A DNA stretch of 64,000 bases, from NCBI GenBank assembly GCA_016788065.1, contig JAEUTI010000026.1:2290-66289 (forward strand). Reading direction: 5' to 3'. Each line of letters begins with the position of its first letter. Positions within the stretch are counted from its first letter, which is position 1. This document shows, piece by piece, positions 27,361 through 36,607 of the stretch. Made by a program: the position numbers and the translations under genes. The stretch is from Bacteroidia bacterium (lineage in GTDB: Bacteria > Bacteroidota > Bacteroidia > AKYH767-A > OLB10). Below the pieces are notes generated by a model that saw only the letters and a program-made list of their open reading frames with translations, had not been told where the DNA came from and ran no database searches.

Positions 27361-27431
27361 GGTCGCGTGGCCGAGTGGTTAGGCAGAGGTCTGCAAAACC
27401 TTGTACAGCAGTTCAAATCTGCTCGCGACCT
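27361..27431 (+). tRNA. tRNA-Cys (GCA)
   Basis: Hand-folded cloverleaf. Acceptor stem GGTCGCG/CGCGACC. Anticodon stem GAGGT/ACCTT with loop CTGCAAA. T arm AGCAG-TTCAAAT-CTGCT. Discriminator is U73 (a CysRS identity element). CCA is not encoded. Confidence 0.9.
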
Positions 27432-27433
27432 CG
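27418..27433 (+). repeat. att-like direct repeat, copy 1 (3' end of tRNA-Cys)
   Basis: TCTGCTCGCGACCTCG is identical to 36408-36423. Confidence 0.85.
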
Positions 27434-27465: not shown

Positions 27466-27700
27466 ATGGATTTGAATACGAGTGAATTACATCTGATTTT
27501 CGAGTATTTATGAATCTTTAAAATAGGATTTTGAACCCAAATCACTGCTTTCTCAAGTCATTGATTATCAGACATCAAAAATTTGATTTTTTTAAAAAGG
27601 CTCAATATGTTTCACCTTTTGTTTCACCTTGAAGAGAAAATTCCTAATTTCGGCATCTTAGAACAACTGTCTCAAAATTACGTTACAGTTGTTAGTTGAT

Positions 27701-28027
27701 ATGAAAAAAATCAAATCCGCCTTTATTTTCTTTTTTGCCTGGTACATGCTCTCCATGGTTTTCATTCCATGTGCTGACATTTGTGCCGAGGATTTACATG
27801 AAGTGGTGTCTTCTATGAATTCCGCTCAGGAACATCATCAGGAGCATTCGGATTTATGTTCTCCATTTTGCTCTTGTTCCTGTTGTTCTTCACAGATTAC
27901 ATTTGCTCATTTTCAGTCATTGGAAATTATCAAGAATGATTATGTCAGAAGTTTTGTTTCATTAAATCAGGTTTTTCTTCCTTCCATTTACTTTTCAATT
28001 TGGCAACCGCCAAAACTCGCTTTATAG
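27701..28027 (+). CDS. Cys/His-rich small membrane protein (resembles the family I recall as DUF6660)
   Basis: N-terminal TM helix, then PCADIC, EHHQEHSDLCSPFCSCSCCS and a C-terminal WQPPK. First gene of the czc-like operon. Start at ATG 27701. Confidence 0.55.
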   Translation: MKKIKSAFIFFFAWYMLSMVFIPCADICAEDLHEVVSSMNSAQEHHQEHSDLCSPFCSCSCCSSQITFAHFQSLEIIKNDYVRSFVSLNQVFLPSIYFSIWQPPKLAL

Positions 28028-28123
28028 ATTTCAAAATGTCCTTTTTCTAAGGACTGTTTAAATTCTATGTCAATGCTATGCATTGGCCGGTTTTCTATTT
28101 TAATCTATTCAACAACTAATTTA

Positions 28124-31100
28124 ATGTTAGACAAAATAATTGCGTTCAGTATAAATAATAAGTTCATCATTGGGTTGATGACACTTGCACTCATTGTTTG
28201 GGGGGCATGGAGCGCATCTAAACTACCCATTGATGCACTTCCTGATATAACAAACAATCAGGTTCAGATAATAACCCTTTGCCCTACACTTGCTGGCCAG
28301 GAAGTGGAACAATTGGTCACCTACCCTATTGAACAAAGCATTGCCAACTTGCCAGACGTGGTAGAGTTACGAAGCATTTCTCGATTCGGACTTTCGGTTG
28401 TTACAGTGGTATTTGAGGACAAGGTCGACATCTATTTTGCAAGGCAGCTTGTTAATGAAAAACTGAAGGAAGCTGAGGAAAAAATTCCAAGAGGAATTGG
28501 TACGCCCGAATTGGCTCCTGTAAGTACGGGATTAGGAGAAGTGTACCAATATATAATACATCCAAAAAAGGGAAGCGAAAGCAAATATACTGCTATGGAC
28601 CTTCGAACCATGCAGGACTGGATTGTGGCCCGGCAGCTGTATGGTACTCCGGGAATTGCTGAGGTGAACAGTTTTGGTGGTCAGCTCAAACAGTATGAAG
28701 TCGCAGTGAATCCCGACAGGCTTGTGGCAATGGGTATTTCTATTCCGGAAATATTCACTGCTCTTGAAAGGAATAATGAAAATACCGGAGGTGCCTATAT
28801 TGATAAAAAACCCAATGCCTATTTTATAAGGGGGGTTGGATTGATAGGCTCCTTTGAGGATATCAAAAGAATTGCTGTTAAAAATAATCCAAATGGCATC
28901 CCTATTCTTATTGGTGACGTGGCTGAAGTTCGGTTTGGAAGTGCTGTCAGGTATGGAGCCTTGACGTATAATGGACAGGTTGATGCCGTTGGAGGTGTGG
29001 TGATGATGCTCAAAGGGTCAAACAGCGCTGATGTGGTAAATCGTGTCAAGGAAAAGATGAATACGATTAAAGCATCGTTACCTGATGATGTTGTTATAGA
29101 GCCGTATCTTGATAGAACAGACCTGGTTAATCGCGCTATTTCCACCGTTGAAAAGAATCTTCTTGAAGGTGCTCTGATTGTGATTTTTGTACTGGTGTTG
29201 TTTTTGGGAAATCTTCGTGCCGGGCTTATAGTTGCATCTGCGATTCCACTATCCATGCTATTTGCCCTTGGAATGATGAATCTGTTTGGTGTGAGTGCGA
29301 ATCTCATGAGTTTAGGAGCAATTGATTTTGGACTCATAGTAGACGGAGCTGTAATTATTGTGGAGAGCATTTTTCACCGAATCACGACAAGCCGATTGAA
29401 AGACAACAGGACTGAACTATCTACGGAGGAAATGAATGAAACCGTTTTGGATAGTGCTAAAAGAATGATGAAGTCCGCTGCTTTTGGACAAATGATAATT
29501 CTGATTGTTTACTTACCAATATTATCACTTGTTGGAATTGAAGGCAAAATGTTTGGTCCAATGGCGCAAACTGTATCATTTGCCATTCTTGGTGCTTTTA
29601 TTCTTTCACTTACATATATTCCCATGGTATCAGCTCTTTTCCTTAGCAGAAAGATAGCACACAAAATCAATATTTCAGATAAAATGATGATGAAAATCCA
29701 GGCAGTATATTTGCCATTGCTGCAAAAAGCTATTGCTGCAAGGAAAATCGTCATTGGAACAACTGCGGTAGTTTTTATTTTCACTGTAGTGCTGTTTGCA
29801 AGAATGGGAGGTGAATTTATACCTACTTTAACAGAAGGTGATTTCGCATTTCATTGTATTCTTCCGCAAGGAACATCCTTATCTCAGAGCATAGAAACAT
29901 CAATGCAGGCATCAAGAATTGTAAAACAATTTGACGAAGTAAAGATGATTGTAGGCAGAACCGGAAGTGCTGAGGTACCTACTGACCCAATGCCTCCTGA
30001 AGCAACGGATTTAATGATAATATTAAAGCAGCCGGATGAATGGAAACGTGATATAACGTATGAGGAACTGGCTCAAGAAATTATAGAAGAACTTGAAGTG
30101 ATACCAGGAGTATTTTTTGAGAAAAGCCAACCCATTCAAATGCGATTTAATGAACTTATGACCGGAATCCGGCAGGATGTTGCAATTAAAATATTTGGTG
30201 AAAACATGGACACCTTGCTGTTTTACGCCAATAAAGTAAATGAGTCTATCAGCAGTGTAGAAGGAATAACACAACCCAGTGTTGAAAGGGTATCCGGATT
30301 GCCACAGATTGTTATTAATTATAACAGGTCGCAAATTGCAAATTATGGACTTGCCATTGAGGACATCAATCATATTGTAAGTACCGCATTTGCAGGAGGT
30401 GATGCAGGTGTTGTTTTTGAAAATGAGAGAAAATTTGATTTGGTTGTTCGATTAGACAGCACACACAGAAATAATATTGAAGATGTGAGTCATTTGTTCA
30501 TTCCAACATCTGGAGGAAATCAAATTCCGCTATCACAAATTGCAGATATTAAGTTGGAGTTAGGGCCGGCCCAGATAAGCCGCGAAGACGGGAAACGCAG
30601 AATCGTAGTCGGGTTTAATGTGAAAGGCAGGGATGTTGAAAGCGTAGTAAAAGAAATGCAAAGTATGTTGGCGAACAAAGTTAAACTACCGGAAGGTTAT
30701 TATTTTACATATGGCGGCACGTTTGAAAACCTGCAGGCGGCTTCTGCCCGTTTAATGATTGCTGTCCCGGTTGCACTTGCTCTTATTTTCATTTTGCTCT
30801 ACTTCACATTCACTTCTGTCAGCCAGGCAGTAGTGATATTTACCGCAATTCCTATGGCCGCAATTGGCGGAGTGTTCGCGCTTCTGGTGAGGGATATGCC
30901 ATTCAGCATATCAGCAGGAGTAGGATTTATTGCCTTGTTTGGAGTGGCAGTGTTAAATGGTATTGTATTGATTAGTACATTCAATCAGCTGCAAAAAGAT
31001 GGTGTTTCTGATATGATAACAAGAATTATGGAAGGAACAAAAATTCGACTTCGTCCGGTATTGATGACTGCTGCGGTTGCTTCATTAGGATTTCTGCCGA

Positions 31101-32491
31101 TGGCACTTTCACATGGAGCAGGGGCGGAAGTTCAGCGACCATTGGCAACTGTAGTTATCGGAGGTTTGATTTCTGCAACCTTCCTGACACTTTTTGTTTT
31201 ACCATTGCTTTACCTGGTATTTTCGCCAAAGAGGGTATCAACTTCGAACAAAACAATTGTAGGATTAATCTTTGTCATTATTTCAGGATTTGCAAGCTAC
31301 GATTCAAATGCACAAACTGCTTCCAGAATATTAAGTGTGGAAGACGCTATAAAAATAGCGCTTGACAGTAATTTGAATATTAAGGTCTCAAAACTTAATA
31401 TGGAGGCAAGTCAAAAGCTCAAAAAATCTTTCTTTGAATTACCCAAAACTGAAGTGAGTTACCAGTATGGACAGTTCAACAGCAACAATAAGGATAACAG
31501 TATTGAGATTTCCCAGGATATTCCGTTTCCTACATACTATGGTGCTCAGTCAGGGCTGTTGAACGCACAGGTGCGGGGCAGTACATTAGATTACAAAGCC
31601 TCCGAAAATGAATTAAAGGGACTTGTGCAGGAAAACTACTTTCAATTGCAATATCTTTTATTGGCCAAAAAAAATGTAAGACAATTGGATAGTTTGTATG
31701 ATGAATTTGTTCGGGTTGCAACATTGAGATACAATTCAGGTGAAACCAATTTGCTTGAGAAAATATCAGCTGAAACAAAGCGCAGTGAAATATCTATACA
31801 ACTTTCAAGAATGGAAAGCGAGTATTTCGCTGCGTATAATGCTCTCAAAACCTTACTTAACATATCATTTGATTTCGAGGTGAGTGCATCATTTGAGCCC
31901 TTGCAATTATTGTCAGGTATTGATTCTTCAGCAGTACTTCAAAATCCAAACTTGTTAAAATATTATCAGGAAGCTGAAGTCGCAGATAGATACGCCAAGT
32001 TGGAAATTGCTCAAGCATTACCTGATATTAAGTTGGGATATTTTAATCAATCAATAATCGGCTTACAAAGCATCAATGGAAGTGAGACTTACTTTGACTC
32101 TGGCGACCGATTCACCGGTTTTAGCCTCGGACTCAATATTCCTTTAACATTTTTTAGTAATTCATCAAAGGCAAATTCATACAAATTACAAAGAGATGCA
32201 TTAGAACTGGCTGGTGAAAACAACAAGCGAATGTTGCAAAATCAGCTTGAGCGGTCATTACAAAATTATGGTTCCAGTGTATTGCAATACGAAATGTATA
32301 AAGAGGCTTCCTCAAATTACATTGAATCCTTAATTAGTACAGCAACGCTTGGTTTTAAGAATGGCGAAATTGGCTATATGGAGTATATCAATGCCCTTGA
32401 AACAGCTGCTAACATAAAGATAAAGTACTTGCAATCTATTAATCAAATCAATCAATCTATTGTTCAAATTAACTTGTTAATCAGTAAATAA
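28124..32491 (+). CDS. CzcA/CusA-type heavy-metal RND efflux pump fused in frame to a TolC-like outer-membrane factor
   Basis: The first ~1040 aa form a typical HME-RND pump (12 TM, large periplasmic loops). A hydrophobic signal-like segment follows (31250-31315, KTIVGLIFVIISGFASYDSNAQ). The last ~390 aa are an OMF (LSVEDAIKIALDSNLNIK and coiled repeats). No stop or frameshift separates the parts. Confidence 0.88.
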   Translation: MLDKIIAFSINNKFIIGLMTLALIVWGAWSASKLPIDALPDITNNQVQIITLCPTLAGQEVEQLVTYPIEQSIANLPDVVELRSISRFGLSVVTVVFEDKVDIYFARQLVNEKLKEAEEKIPRGIGTPELAPVSTGLGEVYQYIIHPKKGSESKYTAMDLRTMQDWIVARQLYGTPGIAEVNSFGGQLKQYEVAVNPDRLVAMGISIPEIFTALERNNENTGGAYIDKKPNAYFIRGVGLIGSFEDIKRIAVKNNPNGIPILIGDVAEVRFGSAVRYGALTYNGQVDAVGGVVMMLKGSNSADVVNRVKEKMNTIKASLPDDVVIEPYLDRTDLVNRAISTVEKNLLEGALIVIFVLVLFLGNLRAGLIVASAIPLSMLFALGMMNLFGVSANLMSLGAIDFGLIVDGAVIIVESIFHRITTSRLKDNRTELSTEEMNETVLDSAKRMMKSAAFGQMIILIVYLPILSLVGIEGKMFGPMAQTVSFAILGAFILSLTYIPMVSALFLSRKIAHKINISDKMMMKIQAVYLPLLQKAIAARKIVIGTTAVVFIFTVVLFARMGGEFIPTLTEGDFAFHCILPQGTSLSQSIETSMQASRIVKQFDEVKMIVGRTGSAEVPTDPMPPEATDLMIILKQPDEWKRDITYEELAQEIIEELEVIPGVFFEKSQPIQMRFNELMTGIRQDVAIKIFGENMDTLLFYANKVNESISSVEGITQPSVERVSGLPQIVINYNRSQIANYGLAIEDINHIVSTAFAGGDAGVVFENERKFDLVVRLDSTHRNNIEDVSHLFIPTSGGNQIPLSQIADIKLELGPAQISREDGKRRIVVGFNVKGRDVESVVKEMQSMLANKVKLPEGYYFTYGGTFENLQAASARLMIAVPVALALIFILLYFTFTSVSQAVVIFTAIPMAAIGGVFALLVRDMPFSISAGVGFIALFGVAVLNGIVLISTFNQLQKDGVSDMITRIMEGTKIRLRPVLMTAAVASLGFLPMALSHGAGAEVQRPLATVVIGGLISATFLTLFVLPLLYLVFSPKRVSTSNKTIVGLIFVIISGFASYDSNAQTASRILSVEDAIKIALDSNLNIKVSKLNMEASQKLKKSFFELPKTEVSYQYGQFNSNNKDNSIEISQDIPFPTYYGAQSGLLNAQVRGSTLDYKASENELKGLVQENYFQLQYLLLAKKNVRQLDSLYDEFVRVATLRYNSGETNLLEKISAETKRSEISIQLSRMESEYFAAYNALKTLLNISFDFEVSASFEPLQLLSGIDSSAVLQNPNLLKYYQEAEVADRYAKLEIAQALPDIKLGYFNQSIIGLQSINGSETYFDSGDRFTGFSLGLNIPLTFFSNSSKANSYKLQRDALELAGENNKRMLQNQLERSLQNYGSSVLQYEMYKEASSNYIESLISTATLGFKNGEIGYMEYINALETAANIKIKYLQSINQINQSIVQINLLISK

Positions 32492-32493
32492 AC

Positions 32494-33900
32494 ATGCAAA
32501 CCATGAAATTACATAAATATATATCACCCATGTTTCAACTAAATAATTATCCTGTATTTTTTGGAATGATTTTAAATTTCTTTGTACTGTCGGGTTGTTC
32601 TGAAAAATCTGCAAGTAATGCAGGAGAAGCAGAACATGGACATGAGGAAGAAGGTGTGCATGAGAATGCCTTGACAGCTTCTCTTACTGCAGCACAGATA
32701 AAGAGCATTGGAATTGTTTTGGGCAATATTGAAAAAAAGCAATTGACCGCTTCGCTCAGAGCAAATGGACTGTTAAAGGTTCCGAATCAGAATCGTGCAA
32801 CCATTTCAACCATGGCTGATGGTGTTGTAAAGTCGATTTTAGTTCAGCCGGGAAATTCTGTTCGCATCGGACAGATTATAGCCACCTTATCCGGAACTTC
32901 TATCATTGCAATGCAGGAAGAGTATCTCGCGGTTAGTGCCAGGGTGCTGTTATCTGAGTCAGATTTTTATCGCCAGCAGGAATTACAAAAAGGTAATGCA
33001 ACGTCTGCTAAAGTTTATCAACAGTCCGAGGCTGACCTGAAATCGCTCAAAGCGCGAAAATCAGGACTGCAAAAGCAATTGGAATTGGTTGGTATCAGTG
33101 TTAATGAATTGACAAGTGAAAATTTTCAATCCAGCGTCAATATTACCAGTCCGATAAACGGTGTAGTTAGTGATGTTTTAGTCAACATAGGAAGTTTTGT
33201 CGAAGCGAATAATCCAATCGCCACAATTGTGGATAATTCTCAGCTTCACCTTGATTTGTATGTGTATGAGAAGGATTTATCAAAACTCAAAGAAGGTCAG
33301 ACTATTCATTTTACACTAACAAATAACCCCGGAAAAGAATATGATGCAAAGATTTATGCCATAAGCAACACATTTGAATCAAATTCAAAAGCTGTATCTG
33401 TACACGCACAGGTTTTGGGTGATAAATCCGGTTTAATTGATGGAATGAGTATAACTGCAATAGTGAGCTTAAGCGAAACAGCCGTTGATGCAGTTCCAAC
33501 GGAATCGATTGTTAGTTTTGAAGGACAGGATTTTATTTTCGTAGTTTCTGATGCTCATAATGAAGAAGAACATCATGGTGATGGGGATGGGCATAATCAC
33601 GACGAACATGGGCACGAACACAAAGACTCAGAAATTTCTGATAAAAAAATGACACATGAACATGAAGACGGTGAATCGCATGCTGAACATAGCGATTCAG
33701 AAGAAGTGCATGAAACTAATGTAACTTCTGCCGGCATGCTCACTTTTGAACGGATTCCTGTGGCCAAAGGCACAACCGATATTGGCTACTCGGAAATTAC
33801 TTTATTGAAGGATATTCCGGCGAATGCCCAAATAGTTACAAAAGGTGCATTTTTCGTGCTGGGTAAAATGACCAATGCTGGTGAAGGTCATGAGCATTGA
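32494..33900 (+). CDS. RND efflux periplasmic adaptor (CzcB/CusB-like) lipoprotein with His-rich segments
   Basis: Lipobox LSGC, HlyD/MFP-type barrel-sandwich and coiled-coil pattern. His-rich stretches at the N-terminus, at 33556-33714, and in the C-terminal GEGHEH. Confidence 0.85.
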   Translation: MQTMKLHKYISPMFQLNNYPVFFGMILNFFVLSGCSEKSASNAGEAEHGHEEEGVHENALTASLTAAQIKSIGIVLGNIEKKQLTASLRANGLLKVPNQNRATISTMADGVVKSILVQPGNSVRIGQIIATLSGTSIIAMQEEYLAVSARVLLSESDFYRQQELQKGNATSAKVYQQSEADLKSLKARKSGLQKQLELVGISVNELTSENFQSSVNITSPINGVVSDVLVNIGSFVEANNPIATIVDNSQLHLDLYVYEKDLSKLKEGQTIHFTLTNNPGKEYDAKIYAISNTFESNSKAVSVHAQVLGDKSGLIDGMSITAIVSLSETAVDAVPTESIVSFEGQDFIFVVSDAHNEEEHHGDGDGHNHDEHGHEHKDSEISDKKMTHEHEDGESHAEHSDSEEVHETNVTSAGMLTFERIPVAKGTTDIGYSEITLLKDIPANAQIVTKGAFFVLGKMTNAGEGHEH

Positions 33901-33929: not shown

Positions 33930-34295
33930 ATGAAGTTGAATACATTGATGCCAAAGGCATTAGAAGCATTCTATAACCTGGAATTATCAAATGCCGAAGC
34001 CGCTTTTAAGATGAAGCACTATCAACAGAGCTGGAGACATCTTGAGCGCGCGCATATTTTAGGCCAGCCATATCCGATAGCCCATTCAATGGTGCATTGG
34101 AGAATGCTTCTTTTCGGCATTAAAACAAAAAACATTTCTGAAATTATCGGGCAAATTCCCCGACTCCTATTTGGAGGAGTAAAATCGTTTGTTGGAAAAA
34201 TACCAGTTGGAAATACCGGAGGAGCCAATGTTCCTCCATTGAAGCCTATGGATATTCCAGACGATTTGATACAAATAATTAATAATTATAAATAA
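33930..34295 (+). CDS. DUF3703-family protein
   Basis: W.HLERAHILGQ...H..ML.....GQ..R......GK.PVGNTGGANVP pattern as I recall for DUF3703. Confidence 0.65.
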   Translation: MKLNTLMPKALEAFYNLELSNAEAAFKMKHYQQSWRHLERAHILGQPYPIAHSMVHWRMLLFGIKTKNISEIIGQIPRLLFGGVKSFVGKIPVGNTGGANVPPLKPMDIPDDLIQIINNYK

Positions 34296-36181
34296 TGAGA
34301 CTTCCTCTTAAAGACAAGAAATTTATTTTTCTGTTAGTGGCAATTTTGGTAGTTGTTACACTTGAAATATTTTCCATTTTTGGAATTGATATGCCAATGC
34401 CATATGCACCTTTCATTTATGTTGCTTTTATATTGGCAATTGGACATAAAGTTATTTGGAATGGCTTTCAGGCACTATTTAGGTTGAATTTCAGCAGCAT
34501 CAACTTATTAATGGTTATTGCTGTTGTTGGAGCGTTTTATCTGGGAGAATACCCTGAGGCTGCGGTTGTAATTGTTTTATATGTATTAGGTGAACGCCTG
34601 GAAGATATAGGAATAGCAAATAGTAAGTCAGCATTGGATGATTTGGTTTCAAAATCTCCTAAAACAGCTTTCATTAAAGCATCTGGAATTGATGTCCCAA
34701 TTGATAAGATTGAGATAGGCACAATTATTCAGGTTAAACCTCATGATATGATTCCGCTTGATGGAATTATTGAATACGGCGAATCCGCAGTTGATGAAGC
34801 TGCAATCACCGGTGAACCTATACCTAAAGATAAGCACAAGGGAGATTTGGTTTTTGCCGGTACACTTAACAAAAGTGGTTTTATTGAAATCAAGACCACT
34901 AAACTTTCCACTGACACTACTTTTTCCAAAATAATAAAATTAACATTTGAGGTCAGTGCGAATAAAAGTAAAACGCAAAAGTTTATTCAACAATTTGCCA
35001 AAATATATACTCCTTCAGTTATAGTTTTAGCTGCATTGTTATTTGTAGTACCTGTTTTCTTGTTAAATAAAGATATGAATCACTGGCTTGAACAGGCTAT
35101 TACCTTATTAGTAATTGCTTGTCCATGTGCGCTTGTTATATCAACACCGGTAGCTATCTATGCAGCTATTGGAAATGCCTCTTCAAAAGGAGTATTAATT
35201 AAAGGTGGGAAATATTTGGAATTATTGGCGGGTGTTAACGCAATATGTCTTGATAAAACAAGGACTATTACATTTGGTAATCCTGTGGTTTCAGATGTAA
35301 TTCCTCTCAATGGGACCAGTCGAGAAGAATTATTGGCATGTGCAGCAGGTGCTGAAGTATTTAGCGAGCACCCGCTTGCACAGGCCATTGTAGATGCTGC
35401 AAAAAATGCAGGATATAAAATTCATGCTGCCGAAAAATTCGAAAGCATTATAGGCAAAGGAGCTATAGCAAAATGTCTTGTTTGTGAGGATGAAACAATT
35501 CTCATAGGAAAGCTTCAATTTATTGGCGAAAGCCAGCCCATCACCAACGATGCCGAACAAATAGTCAAAAAACTCTCTGAGCAAGGCAAAACAAGTGTCG
35601 TAGTAAGTTTTGGAAATGGGGTTGCAGGAATTATTGGCTTAATGGATGAAATTAAACCAGATAGTGCCGAGGCCATCAAGGAATTCAGGATTATGGGAAT
35701 TGAACCGATTATGTTAACCGGGGATAGCATTTTATCAGCCAACTATGTTGCAGATATTGTTCACATTAAAGAAATATTTGGAGGCCTTCTTCCTGAAGAT
35801 AAAGCAGCTCGAATCAAAGAATCCATTTTAAAATATAAAAGCGTTGCAATGGTAGGAGATGGAATCAATGATGCGCCCGCCTTAGCTCAATCAACTGTTG
35901 GTATAGCCATGGGAGCCGCAGGCAGTGATACTGCTATTGAAACCGCTAACATCGCTTTAATGAACGATAAACTGTCGCTCATTCCTTTTCTTATACGATT
36001 ATCCAAATCAACATTATTCAGAATAAAAATGAATACCATCGGAGCTATATCAATCAAGGTGCTCTTTATATTATTGGCATTCATGGGATATGGAAATTTG
36101 GTGATGGCTATTGCAGCTGATGTGGGCGTTACCTTGATTGTGATATTGATAAGTCTGAACTTAATGAAGTTTGAATCTTAA
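34295..36181 (+). CDS. heavy-metal (Zn/Cd/Co-type) P1B-type ATPase lacking an N-terminal metal-binding domain
   Basis: TGEP, CPC (35120-35128), SEHPL, TGD and GDGINDAPAL are all present. The phosphorylation motif reads DKTRT (35252-35266). The start overlaps the upstream stop (TAATG). Confidence 0.9.
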   Translation: MRLPLKDKKFIFLLVAILVVVTLEIFSIFGIDMPMPYAPFIYVAFILAIGHKVIWNGFQALFRLNFSSINLLMVIAVVGAFYLGEYPEAAVVIVLYVLGERLEDIGIANSKSALDDLVSKSPKTAFIKASGIDVPIDKIEIGTIIQVKPHDMIPLDGIIEYGESAVDEAAITGEPIPKDKHKGDLVFAGTLNKSGFIEIKTTKLSTDTTFSKIIKLTFEVSANKSKTQKFIQQFAKIYTPSVIVLAALLFVVPVFLLNKDMNHWLEQAITLLVIACPCALVISTPVAIYAAIGNASSKGVLIKGGKYLELLAGVNAICLDKTRTITFGNPVVSDVIPLNGTSREELLACAAGAEVFSEHPLAQAIVDAAKNAGYKIHAAEKFESIIGKGAIAKCLVCEDETILIGKLQFIGESQPITNDAEQIVKKLSEQGKTSVVVSFGNGVAGIIGLMDEIKPDSAEAIKEFRIMGIEPIMLTGDSILSANYVADIVHIKEIFGGLLPEDKAARIKESILKYKSVAMVGDGINDAPALAQSTVGIAMGAAGSDTAIETANIALMNDKLSLIPFLIRLSKSTLFRIKMNTIGAISIKVLFILLAFMGYGNLVMAIAADVGVTLIVILISLNLMKFES

Positions 36182-36407
36182 ATTTTTAATGGAAAAGTGC
36201 AAAATATTTCGTATCTTCACGGTAATGGAAAATTTTAGTTCAAGTCTGCCATTTGGAAAGAAATCAAAATCAGTTTTGGCATCCAAAGGACCTTTTTCTC
36301 AAAATACCGGTACAGAAGTGCATATCGCTTCACCTGGCGCTTCACCGCTCATACTCGGTTCCATGTACTAATCGCCAAATCAATAACTTATGCAAGGTTG
36401 TCCGGAG

Positions 36408-36423
36408 TCTGCTCGCGACCTCG
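36408..36423 (+). repeat. att-like direct repeat, copy 2 (displaced tRNA-Cys 3' end)
   Basis: TCTGCTCGCGACCTCG is identical to 27418-27433. The 5' flank (TGCAAGGTTGT) loosely resembles the tRNA anticodon/variable region. Confidence 0.8.
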
Positions 36424-36430
36424 GTTAGAA

Positions 36431-36463
36431 AAAGCCGTTTCAACTTTGTTGAAACGGCTTTTT
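36431..36463 (+). terminator. rho-independent terminator immediately after the tRNA 3' remnant
   Basis: AGCCGTTTCAAC-TTTG-TTGAAACGGCT stem-loop followed by a T run, with an A run upstream. Confidence 0.6.
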
Positions 36464-36465
36464 CG

Positions 36466-36607
36466 TTGACTTGGTCGCTATGCTCCCTGTTAAGTTGGTC
36501 GCTATGCTCCCTGTTAAGTTGGTCGCTTCGCTCCGGTGTTTTATTTGGTTCGCTTTGCTCACTGTGTTTGAGTGGTTCGCTTCGGCGCTAGAGTTGGTTG
36601 GTTTCCC
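36466..36607. repeat. degenerate tandem repeat array (5-6 units of 24-28 bp, core TTGGT(C/T)CGCT)
   Basis: TTGACTTGGTCGCTATGCTCCCTG / TTAAGTTGGTCGCTATGCTCCCTG / TTAAGTTGGTCGCTTCGCTCCGGTG / TTTTATTTGGTTCGCTTTGCTCACTGTG / TTTGAGTGGTTCGCTTCGGCGCTAGAG / TTGGTTGGTTTCCC. Confidence 0.85.

Follow-up and report, generated by a model that had tools for sequence, protein, structure and literature searches.

How are an inner-membrane metal pump and the outer-membrane channel of the same efflux system made, if both are encoded as a single polypeptide? Textbook tripartite efflux pumps consist of three separately encoded proteins. The question is raised by a gene, here called czcA::OMF, that lies in a stretch of 64,000 nucleotides from a Bacteroidia bacterium (contig JAEUTI010000026.1 of assembly GCA_016788065.1, positions 2,290 to 66,289; this whole stretch is referred to as the window, and its numbering is used throughout). 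In this gene, a CzcA/CusA-type pump of the resistance-nodulation-cell division (RND) superfamily is followed in frame by a TolC/CzcC-like outer-membrane factor (OMF). Our analysis shows that the gene is a genuine, conserved fusion. Its product is most likely a precursor, a kind of "polyprotein", that supplies two parts of a tripartite efflux system for divalent metals once signal peptidase I has cut between them at an internal signal peptide.

Pump and channel in one reading frame

According to a program-made list of open reading frames (ORFs), an uninterrupted frame runs on the plus strand from 28067 to 32491. The ATG at 28124 is the start common to homologues and gives a product of 1455 residues. 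The fused gene thus defined (28124-32491, plus strand) comprises 1455 codons plus a stop and specifies a predicted precursor of 160.3 kDa; the product is identical to a public database protein (P0002). Translation over 31220-31340 yields ...LPLLYLVFSPKRVSTSNKTIVGLIFVIISGFASYDSNA followed by QTASRILSVEDAIK..., with neither a stop nor a change of frame. Given in full, the same junction reads ...LPLLYLVF, SPKRVSTSNK, TIVGLIFVIISGFA, SYDSNA, QTASRILSVEDAIKIALDSN.... An earlier note, made from the letters of this DNA, had described a single 1455-codon frame joining pump and OMF. The ORF list and the translation agree on this frame, and the coordinates, lengths and junction peptide quoted in that note were reproduced on re-translation.

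The pump moiety, which belongs to the HME (heavy-metal efflux) type, takes up residues 5-1033 in the 1455-residue numbering (28136-31222, plus strand). It covers profile positions 1-1020 of the 1021 positions of Pfam ACR_tran (PF00873; E 2.5e-284) and scores 1196.9 bits against a cut-off of 701.45 with NCBIfam TIGR00914 (CusA/CzcA), over model positions 1-1044 of 1051. The near-complete PF00873 match and the TIGR00914 score above cut-off bear out the claim that the N-terminal part is a full-length CzcA/CusA-type pump. Its best relatives of solved structure are ZneA (4k0e, E 4e-192) and then CusA (3k07, E 2e-186), both of which align from end to end. The PF00873 span and these two alignments indicate the full RND architecture of 12 transmembrane helices (TM1 to TM12) with two large periplasmic loops. 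TM12, which closes the pump moiety, reads ...TLFVLPLLYLVF.

With regard to the substrate, the TM4 motif AIDFGLIVDGAVIIVES (residues 399-415; 29318-29368, plus strand) aligns with AIDFGIIVDGAIVVMEN of ZneA, whereas CusA has AIAVGAMVDAAIVMIEN at this place. Divalent-cation pumps of the HME type are said to carry the motif DFG-x3-DGA-x3-VEN, reportedly defined by Nies in 2003. The motif of the present pump is DFGLIVDGAVIIVES, compared with DFGIIVDGAIVVMEN in ZneA, its final residue being Ser and not Asn. As the TM4 motif is of the ZneA/CzcA type and not of the CusA type, divalent cations are the expected substrates. Proton-driven export of Zn, Cd or Co in particular would be in keeping with the context, that is, the His-rich CzcB and the P1B ATPase encoded in the same operon.

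The predicted mature OMF (31313-32488, plus strand) has 392 residues, a mass of 44.3 kDa and an N-terminal Gln. It contains two tandem OEP repeats (PF02321, E 1.4e-26; ~31340-31861 and 31928-32482), each above cut-off. Sequence searches of the PDB gave no OMF match: phmmer with the OMF part alone found nothing at E ≤ 1 among PDB sequences, and the profile of alignment A1, in which pump columns dominated, retrieved RND pumps only. The matter was therefore settled by fold comparison. An AlphaFold2 (AF2) model of TM12, the junction and the OMF was obtained with a mean predicted local distance difference test score (pLDDT) of 87.2. Its OMF part has the same topology as TolC, a duplicated arrangement of strand, strand, long helix and long helix. 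Foldseek returned 44 PDB matches at E ≤ 0.001, every one of them an OMF, with TolC, SilC, CusC, OprM, CmeC and VceC at the top (TM-scores 0.64-0.70; E ~1e-16 for the first five). That the C-terminal part is a real TolC/CzcC-like OMF is hence confirmed both by the hidden Markov model search and by the fold, and this moiety would form a trimeric outer-membrane channel.

An assignment to the NodT-type lipoprotein OMFs (TIGR01845) was considered and rejected, as the score is 23.9 bits against a cut-off of 210 and residues 1030-1075 contain no Cys. Among PDB chains, none with both a pump and an OMF part was found. The rates at which the two halves of the chain evolve are very unequal: in alignments A2 and A3, relatives with ~80-85% identity in the pump part have just ~53% in the OMF part.

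Occurrence of the fused form and its exchange with split forms

A protein search was carried out with residues 980-1474 as query. All 8000 candidates scored match the region comprising the junction and the OMF, and almost all of the best 120 of these 8000 are 1448-1457 residues long and contain both Pfam domains. Thousands of database proteins of ~1450 residues share the pump-OMF architecture. Additionally, a junction-spanning query of 261 residues was compared with 401 species genomes of the phylum, the families of which bear codes without names. Among the places listed, well over a hundred single open frames of 1440-1500 residues cover both sides of the junction, in many families, and in this search the fused gene often occurs in two copies per genome. 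When genome loci with names are considered, 77 of 80 are fused.

Isolates carrying the fused form include Pedobacter caeni DSM 16990, Pedobacter sp. BAL39, Mucilaginibacter sp. MD40 and Olivibacter; in the complete genome of P. foliorum LMG 31463 (NZ_CP162529) the gene is likewise fused, and both Pfam domains were confirmed. Fused genes are also found in metagenome-assembled genomes (MAGs) labelled Saprospiraceae, Chitinophagales, Crocinitomicaceae, Flavobacteriales and Cytophagales, and in two labelled "Ignavibacteria". In a large part of Bacteroidota, this czc-type system is predominantly encoded in the fused form. The earlier note had mentioned CzcA annotations of about 1450 residues in this phylum; homologue lengths, the search of 401 genomes and the named loci all indicate that the architecture is common there.

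In genomes with an unfused czcA, the OMF gene lies directly after it, giving the order A-C-B. A maximum-likelihood tree, unrooted, was constructed from the C-terminal 480 residues of the pump in 45 fused and 10 split sequences. The tree requires eight changes between the fused and the split state (bootstrap 5-95%: 8-8), a single change being allowed in 0% of the bootstrap trees, and a quick tree of 39 rows requires seven. A single ancient fusion, inherited vertically, was consequently rejected as a full explanation. Split forms branch within groups of fused relatives, at short distances, as illustrated by the fused L029 and the split L034 and L038. They are moreover split by several routes, namely an in-frame TAG, +1 overlaps, +2 overlaps and an insert of ~250 nt. 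In L031, for example, czcA and the OMF share one frame with a single TAG between them (...KTFTKK, stop, AEMKTKIILSS...IFG, then QNTK).

The different mechanisms of splitting point to independent events, and the eight state changes together with this variety of routes indicate that the two encodings are functionally interchangeable. Because the tree is unrooted, fusion and fission cannot be distinguished as the direction of change.

Two further observations concern individual loci. The pump parts of L003, L004, L046 and L069 differ by only ~0.01-0.05 changes per site, and these loci belong to different families (codes f7 and f15; Crocinitomicaceae, Flavobacteriales). This departure of the gene tree from the family codes suggests that members of the phylum have recently exchanged the module horizontally. 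In two genomes of the genus with code g4, the gap or overlap between czcA and the OMF gene (L034, 3430-3600; L038, 3650-3900) has repeat-like sequence, translating as ...LTAKSAKI... or ...FANFA..LRTLRLIAFL..., that recurs downstream. An insert of this kind, ~250 nt long, parts czcA from the OMF gene in L038, and a small repeat element may thus have caused the split in that locus.

A signal peptide at the junction and the likely fate of the precursor

The segment between TM12 and the OMF, encoded on the plus strand, has the three regions of a signal peptide. The n-region, SPKRVSTSNK (31223-31252), has a net charge of +3 and would double as a short cytoplasmic loop, TM12 and the next helix being joined by a loop in the AF2 model. 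The hydrophobic h-region, TIVGLIFVIISGFA (31253-31294), is 14 residues long and is a candidate 13th helix in N-in/C-out orientation. It is followed by the c-region SYDSNA (31295-31312), with Ser at -3 and Ala at -1, after which signal peptidase I is predicted to cut (nt 31312/31313, between A1063 and Q1064). In the numbering of the AF2 model, the TM12 helix comprises residues 3-28, the loop 29-34 and the h-region helix 35-52, and the first OMF element starts at 63; residues 55-59 (DSNA and the Q behind the predicted cut) are the sole disordered stretch of the junction, with a pLDDT below 50. The genome has a gene for signal peptidase I (PF10502). As there is no Cys in the junction (residues 1030-1075), it is not a lipoprotein signal, and the signal peptidase II route was rejected.

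Signal-peptide features were scored with a heuristic of our own, accompanied by controls, in place of SignalP. Briefly, the most hydrophobic window of nine residues past TM12 was located and the best -3/-1 combination downstream of it was chosen, while the +1 residue was left free. A set of 227 fused sequences gave 133 unique junctions. Ala occupies -1 in 129 of 132 unique fused junctions, A, V, S or T is found at -3 in 124 of 132, and Gln follows at +1 in 119 of 132 (90%). The net charge of the n-region averages +3.6, with a minimum of +1, and the uncharged core has a median length of 15 residues. From the cut site to the conserved start of the OMF (LSxxxAIxxALxNN) there is a median of 7 residues (range 0-14). 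Within the variable stretch of alignment A3 that contains the junction, Ala -1 and Gln +1 are among the few columns conserved at ≥90%. On the other hand, when the same code was applied to 216 unique internal hydrophobic segments of the pump, the Ala-Gln pair was found in none.

In Bacteroidetes, cleavage by signal peptidase I uncovers an N-terminal Gln in most substrates, on average in 71% per species (the Q-rule; PMC5837995), and this residue is afterwards cyclised (PMC5837995; PMC10653852). The genome under study obeys the Q-rule, since Gln is at +1 in 410 of the 877 N-termini that resemble signals by a crude criterion. Cleaved signals also differ from signal anchors by a shorter hydrophobic core (PMC2120157). 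By the same definition of the core, the Ala-Gln signal peptides of this genome have a median of 14 residues (interquartile range 12-16) and the TM segments of the pump one of 20 (18-23); the h-region of the junction has the length of a signal peptide rather than that of a TM segment.

Comparison with OMFs that are not fused indicates where this segment comes from. Stand-alone OMFs with 32-45% identity to the C-terminal part start like MRIVIIILFVLLSVAGFA, directly followed across the cut by QSSKLSVQQAIDIALKNN. Stand-alone and split orthologues begin with Met and then have the same n-h-c layout, the same Ala-Gln pair and the same spacing of ~7 residues to LSxxxAIxxALxNN. Given this match at the homologous position, the suggestion that the junction is the signal peptide of the OMF, retained without its initiator Met, holds. 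A search of cluster representatives with the OMF part gave 307 clusters at E ≤ 1e-30. The best 149 of these 307 comprise 92 stand-alone representatives, 31 fused proteins or fragments of such proteins and 26 partial ones; these are not measures of abundance, because fused proteins, with a pump that is ~80% identical, collapse into few clusters. In 72 of the 92 stand-alone representatives, the pattern x-[AGS], cut before a following Gln, occurs within residues 11-45.

One locus deviates from this picture. In L044, a MAG from a long-read assembly, a TAA is found two codons past the predicted cut site (...SADAQT, stop, KLLTVED), where relatives have Gln. Either this is an assembly error or a nonsense mutation has deprived the OMF part of any signal.

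From these features we infer a 13th-helix topology, cleavage and an exact cleavage site, and propose the following course of events. The pump would insert as 12 helices, with its C-terminus in the cytoplasm, where the K/R-rich n-region, derived from the ancestral Sec signal peptide of the OMF, would remain. The h-region of ~14 residues would then insert N-in/C-out as a 13th helix and thereby initiate export of the 392-residue OMF moiety, and signal peptidase I would cut after SNA, between A1063 and Q1064. The soluble 44.3 kDa OMF precursor thus freed would start with Gln-TASRILSVEDAIK; by analogy with other substrates in the phylum, this Gln is assumed to be probably cyclised to pyroglutamate. 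The precursor would subsequently trimerise and insert into the outer membrane, and the pump, of 116.1 kDa, would retain the signal peptide as an extra (13th) helix at its C-terminus. Together with CzcB, the mature parts would assemble in the manner of the CzcCBA and ZneCAB pumps.

An arrangement of this kind would provide pump and channel in equimolar amounts (3:3 in the complex, with six adaptors) and co-targeted, without a second initiation. Equimolar synthesis is the likely selective benefit, though this is speculation. To our knowledge, Bacteroidota do not use translational coupling based on Shine-Dalgarno sequences, a setting in which such a benefit could count.

Several points weigh against this proposal. 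Gln is missing from +1 in 13 of the 132 junctions. Our literature search found no proteomic, blot or N-terminal data on the cleavage, and we know of few natural bacterial cases in which signal peptidase acts behind a polytopic membrane protein. The genome lacks a plant-type glutaminyl cyclase (PF05096); some Bacteroidota use the animal type of this enzyme. When the pump was modelled with AF2 together with the 13th helix (1063 residues, alignment A3), the mean pLDDT was 67, and it was ~50 for the helix at 1043-1060, whose position on the pump is therefore not predicted with confidence. Lastly, a Met is kept in the n-region of 44 of the 132 junctions and, in the window, an in-frame TTG is located at 31205, inside TM12, so that some internal initiation may occur in addition.

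If such initiation near the junction were the main source of the OMF, the fusion made by read-through would amount to a side product, either minor or without function. Several of the retained Met residues are indeed found in the context ...KKGKMK..., which looks like a vestigial start, and the TTG could be used here. However, 88 of 132 junctions are without Met, so internal initiation is not general, and no ATG, GTG or TTG is present between 31206 and 31318 in the window. Since there is no stop codon, all ribosomes translating czcA run into the OMF, making the fusion the major product of czcA translation; we therefore hold a predominantly internal origin of the OMF to be very unlikely. As the identity of the enzyme is deduced from the motif alone, the precursor might also be cut by another protease or at another site, for instance by a rhomboid, a site-2 protease or signal peptidase II, or by autoproteolysis. 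This seems quite unlikely, given that the junction is without a lipobox Cys, that the conserved residues are the determinants of signal peptidase I plus the phylum-specific Gln at +1, and that in split orthologues this motif serves as an ordinary signal at the N-terminus. We assign a negligible probability to an artefact of assembly or sequencing, or to a pseudogene in decay after the loss of its stop: the fusion is found again in thousands of independent assemblies, among them complete genomes like that of P. foliorum (NZ_CP162529), and both halves are intact and conserved. A sequencing error at the junction is excluded by the conservation of the fusion in many independent genomes.

A different fate would await the precursor if the junction were never cut. 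The segment would then be a permanent 13th TM helix that anchors one continuous chain in the inner membrane, with the C-terminal part as outer-membrane channel or as a non-canonical periplasmic duct. Such a tether would agree with the continuous and conserved frame and with the helix of 18 residues that AF2 predicts at this segment, and it would enforce a 1:1 stoichiometry as well. The geometry argues against it. Only ~7-10 residues separate the end of the helix from the first OMF element, a linker spanning at most ~35 Å, and the AF2 topology places the mature N-terminus in the equatorial region, ~30 helical residues below the beta-barrel. The alpha-barrel of TolC measures ~100 Å and the headpiece of an RND pump (AcrB) ~70 Å. 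Argued from secondary structure and from these published dimensions, the mature N-terminus would lie more than 100 Å from the inner membrane, leaving a shortfall of ~90 Å. With a linker so short for the distance, the uncleaved chain would be incompatible with a canonical pump. Furthermore, a tether has no need for a near-invariant Ala at -1 or for Gln at +1, the h-region has the length of a signal peptide and not of a TM segment, and fused and split forms have interconverted at least eight times. A permanently uncleaved chain is accordingly quite unlikely.

There is nonetheless a small chance that a substantial fraction of the chains stays uncleaved, or is cut only after assembly, in which case one chain would span the envelope, held in the inner membrane and at the same time contributing a protomer to the outer-membrane channel, an arrangement that no solved tripartite pump resembles. 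In a milder form, the retained 13th helix may have gained a role of its own, for instance as an AcrZ-like modulatory helix or as a docking site for CzcB.

The earlier note had left two options for the extra hydrophobic segment, an internal export signal that is possibly cleaved and a 13th TM helix. Cleavage by signal peptidase I is favoured over the uncleaved tether by the Ala at -1 and Gln at +1, the core length, the short linker and the switching between encodings. Because this switching is easy and the signal peptide is intact in both forms, the same mature products are expected from fused and split genes.

Genomic setting and related systems

The fused gene is part of a module with the gene order DUF6660 - czcA::OMF - czcB - DUF3703 - P1B ATPase, all on the plus strand. 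Its first gene (27689-28027), directly 5' of the fused gene, encodes a small Cys/His-rich DUF6660 protein (PF20365, E 1.2e-9) with one hydrophobic N-terminal segment; among 80 related named loci, 69 have a same-strand homologue upstream. The gene for the CzcB-like periplasmic adaptor (32494-33900; TIGR01730, 148.5 bits; HlyD_D23) begins 3 nt past the stop of the fused gene. It supplies the cognate adaptor of a tripartite RND system, and a czcB-like gene is located downstream in 79 of the 80 loci. The adaptor has His-rich tails, with stretches rich in His, Asp and Glu near the N-terminus (EHGHEEEGVHE) and ahead of the last domain (EEEHHGDGDGHNHDEHGHEHKD...HEHEDGESHAEHSDSEEVHE), and its C-terminal end is GEGHEH. 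Judging from their composition, these stretches are plausible metal-binding tails. A DUF3703 protein (33930-34295; PF12487, E 4e-44) is encoded next, with counterparts in just 11 of the 80 loci. The module ends with a P1B-type heavy-metal ATPase (34295-36181; E1-E2_ATPase plus Hydrolase domains), also present downstream in 54 of the 80.

The czc module forms an islet of ~9 kb. On the left it is bordered by a tRNA-Cys (GCA) gene (27361-27432, plus strand; identified with ARAGORN) and on the right by a 16-nt direct repeat of the 3' end of that gene, tctgctcgcgacctcg (36408-36423, plus strand; read from the sequence), an arrangement that resembles the att sites flanking an integrated element. No integrase gene lies between the tRNA-Cys gene and its repeat. 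Just beyond the right-hand repeat, three tandem units of 24 nt (GTTGACTTGGTCGCTATGCTCCCT, 75-100% identical) occupy 36465-36536, within an ORF of 112 codons (36253-36591) that is probably spurious.

The architecture is already visible in databases, under a generic name. Full-text searching of about 8.4 million papers and preprints turned up no account of an RND-OMF fusion, and the portions of the main review of tripartite pumps available to us do not mention one. Surveys of genomes and metagenomes that rely on counts of czcC or TolC genes, or on signal-peptide prediction at N-termini only, will score operons of this type as lacking an OMF. The genome report of Mucilaginibacter pedocola, for example, lists two czcA, two czcB and one czcC (PMC6260751), numbers that would fit an overlooked fusion.

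If the proposed processing is correct, the fusion is a widespread natural bacterial "polyprotein" in which an inner-membrane transporter and an outer-membrane channel are separated by signal peptidase I. It would offer a natural system in which to study how signal peptidase picks between cleavage and anchoring and how a transporter tolerates a signal peptide that is never released. The same would hold for pump:channel stoichiometry in a phylum that reportedly lacks coupling based on Shine-Dalgarno sequences.

Among known systems, CzcCBA of Cupriavidus metallidurans and ZneCAB are alike in having a TIGR00914 pump with a DFG..DGA..VE motif in TM4, an OMF with the TolC fold and a CzcB-type adaptor. 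They are, however, encoded by three genes in the order C-B-A or C-A-B, whereas the order here is A-C-B with A and C in one frame; in addition, the signal peptide of the OMF is internal here, and the substrate of the present pump is deduced from sequence. The CusCFBA system of Escherichia coli includes the second-best solved relative of the pump (CusA, 3k07) and one of the best fold matches of the OMF (CusC, 3pik). It differs in that TM4 of CusA carries AIAVGAMVDAAIVMIEN and is not of the DFG..DGA type, in that the cus genes are separate, and in that CusC is a lipoprotein, while the junction of the fusion has no Cys. The closest systems are the split czcA-OMF-czcB operons of other Bacteroidota (L031-L039 and L090), which are orthologous, share gene order, signal peptide and Ala-Gln pair, and are nested among the fused forms. 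In these, a stop codon, an overlap with a change of frame, or an insert keeps the two genes apart, and the OMF has a Met of its own.

With respect to processing, an analogy may be drawn with FbcH of Bradyrhizobium japonicum, reportedly described by Thöny-Meyer et al. in about 1989-1991 as a single precursor of cytochrome b and c1 that is split at an internal signal sequence. In that precursor too, a polytopic inner-membrane protein is continued in the same frame by an internal signal peptide and, after it, by an exported partner from the same complex. The protein families are unrelated, and the exported part of FbcH is said to stay at the inner membrane, whereas the OMF must reach the outer membrane, so that this remains an analogy only. 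Eukaryotic and viral polyproteins follow the same principle, in that an N-in/C-out segment with a short core follows a membrane domain and is cut on the trans side (PMC2120157, PMC13578380, PMC5010249). These are not efflux systems, however, and the cut is made by the signal peptidase complex of the endoplasmic reticulum instead of the bacterial LepB.

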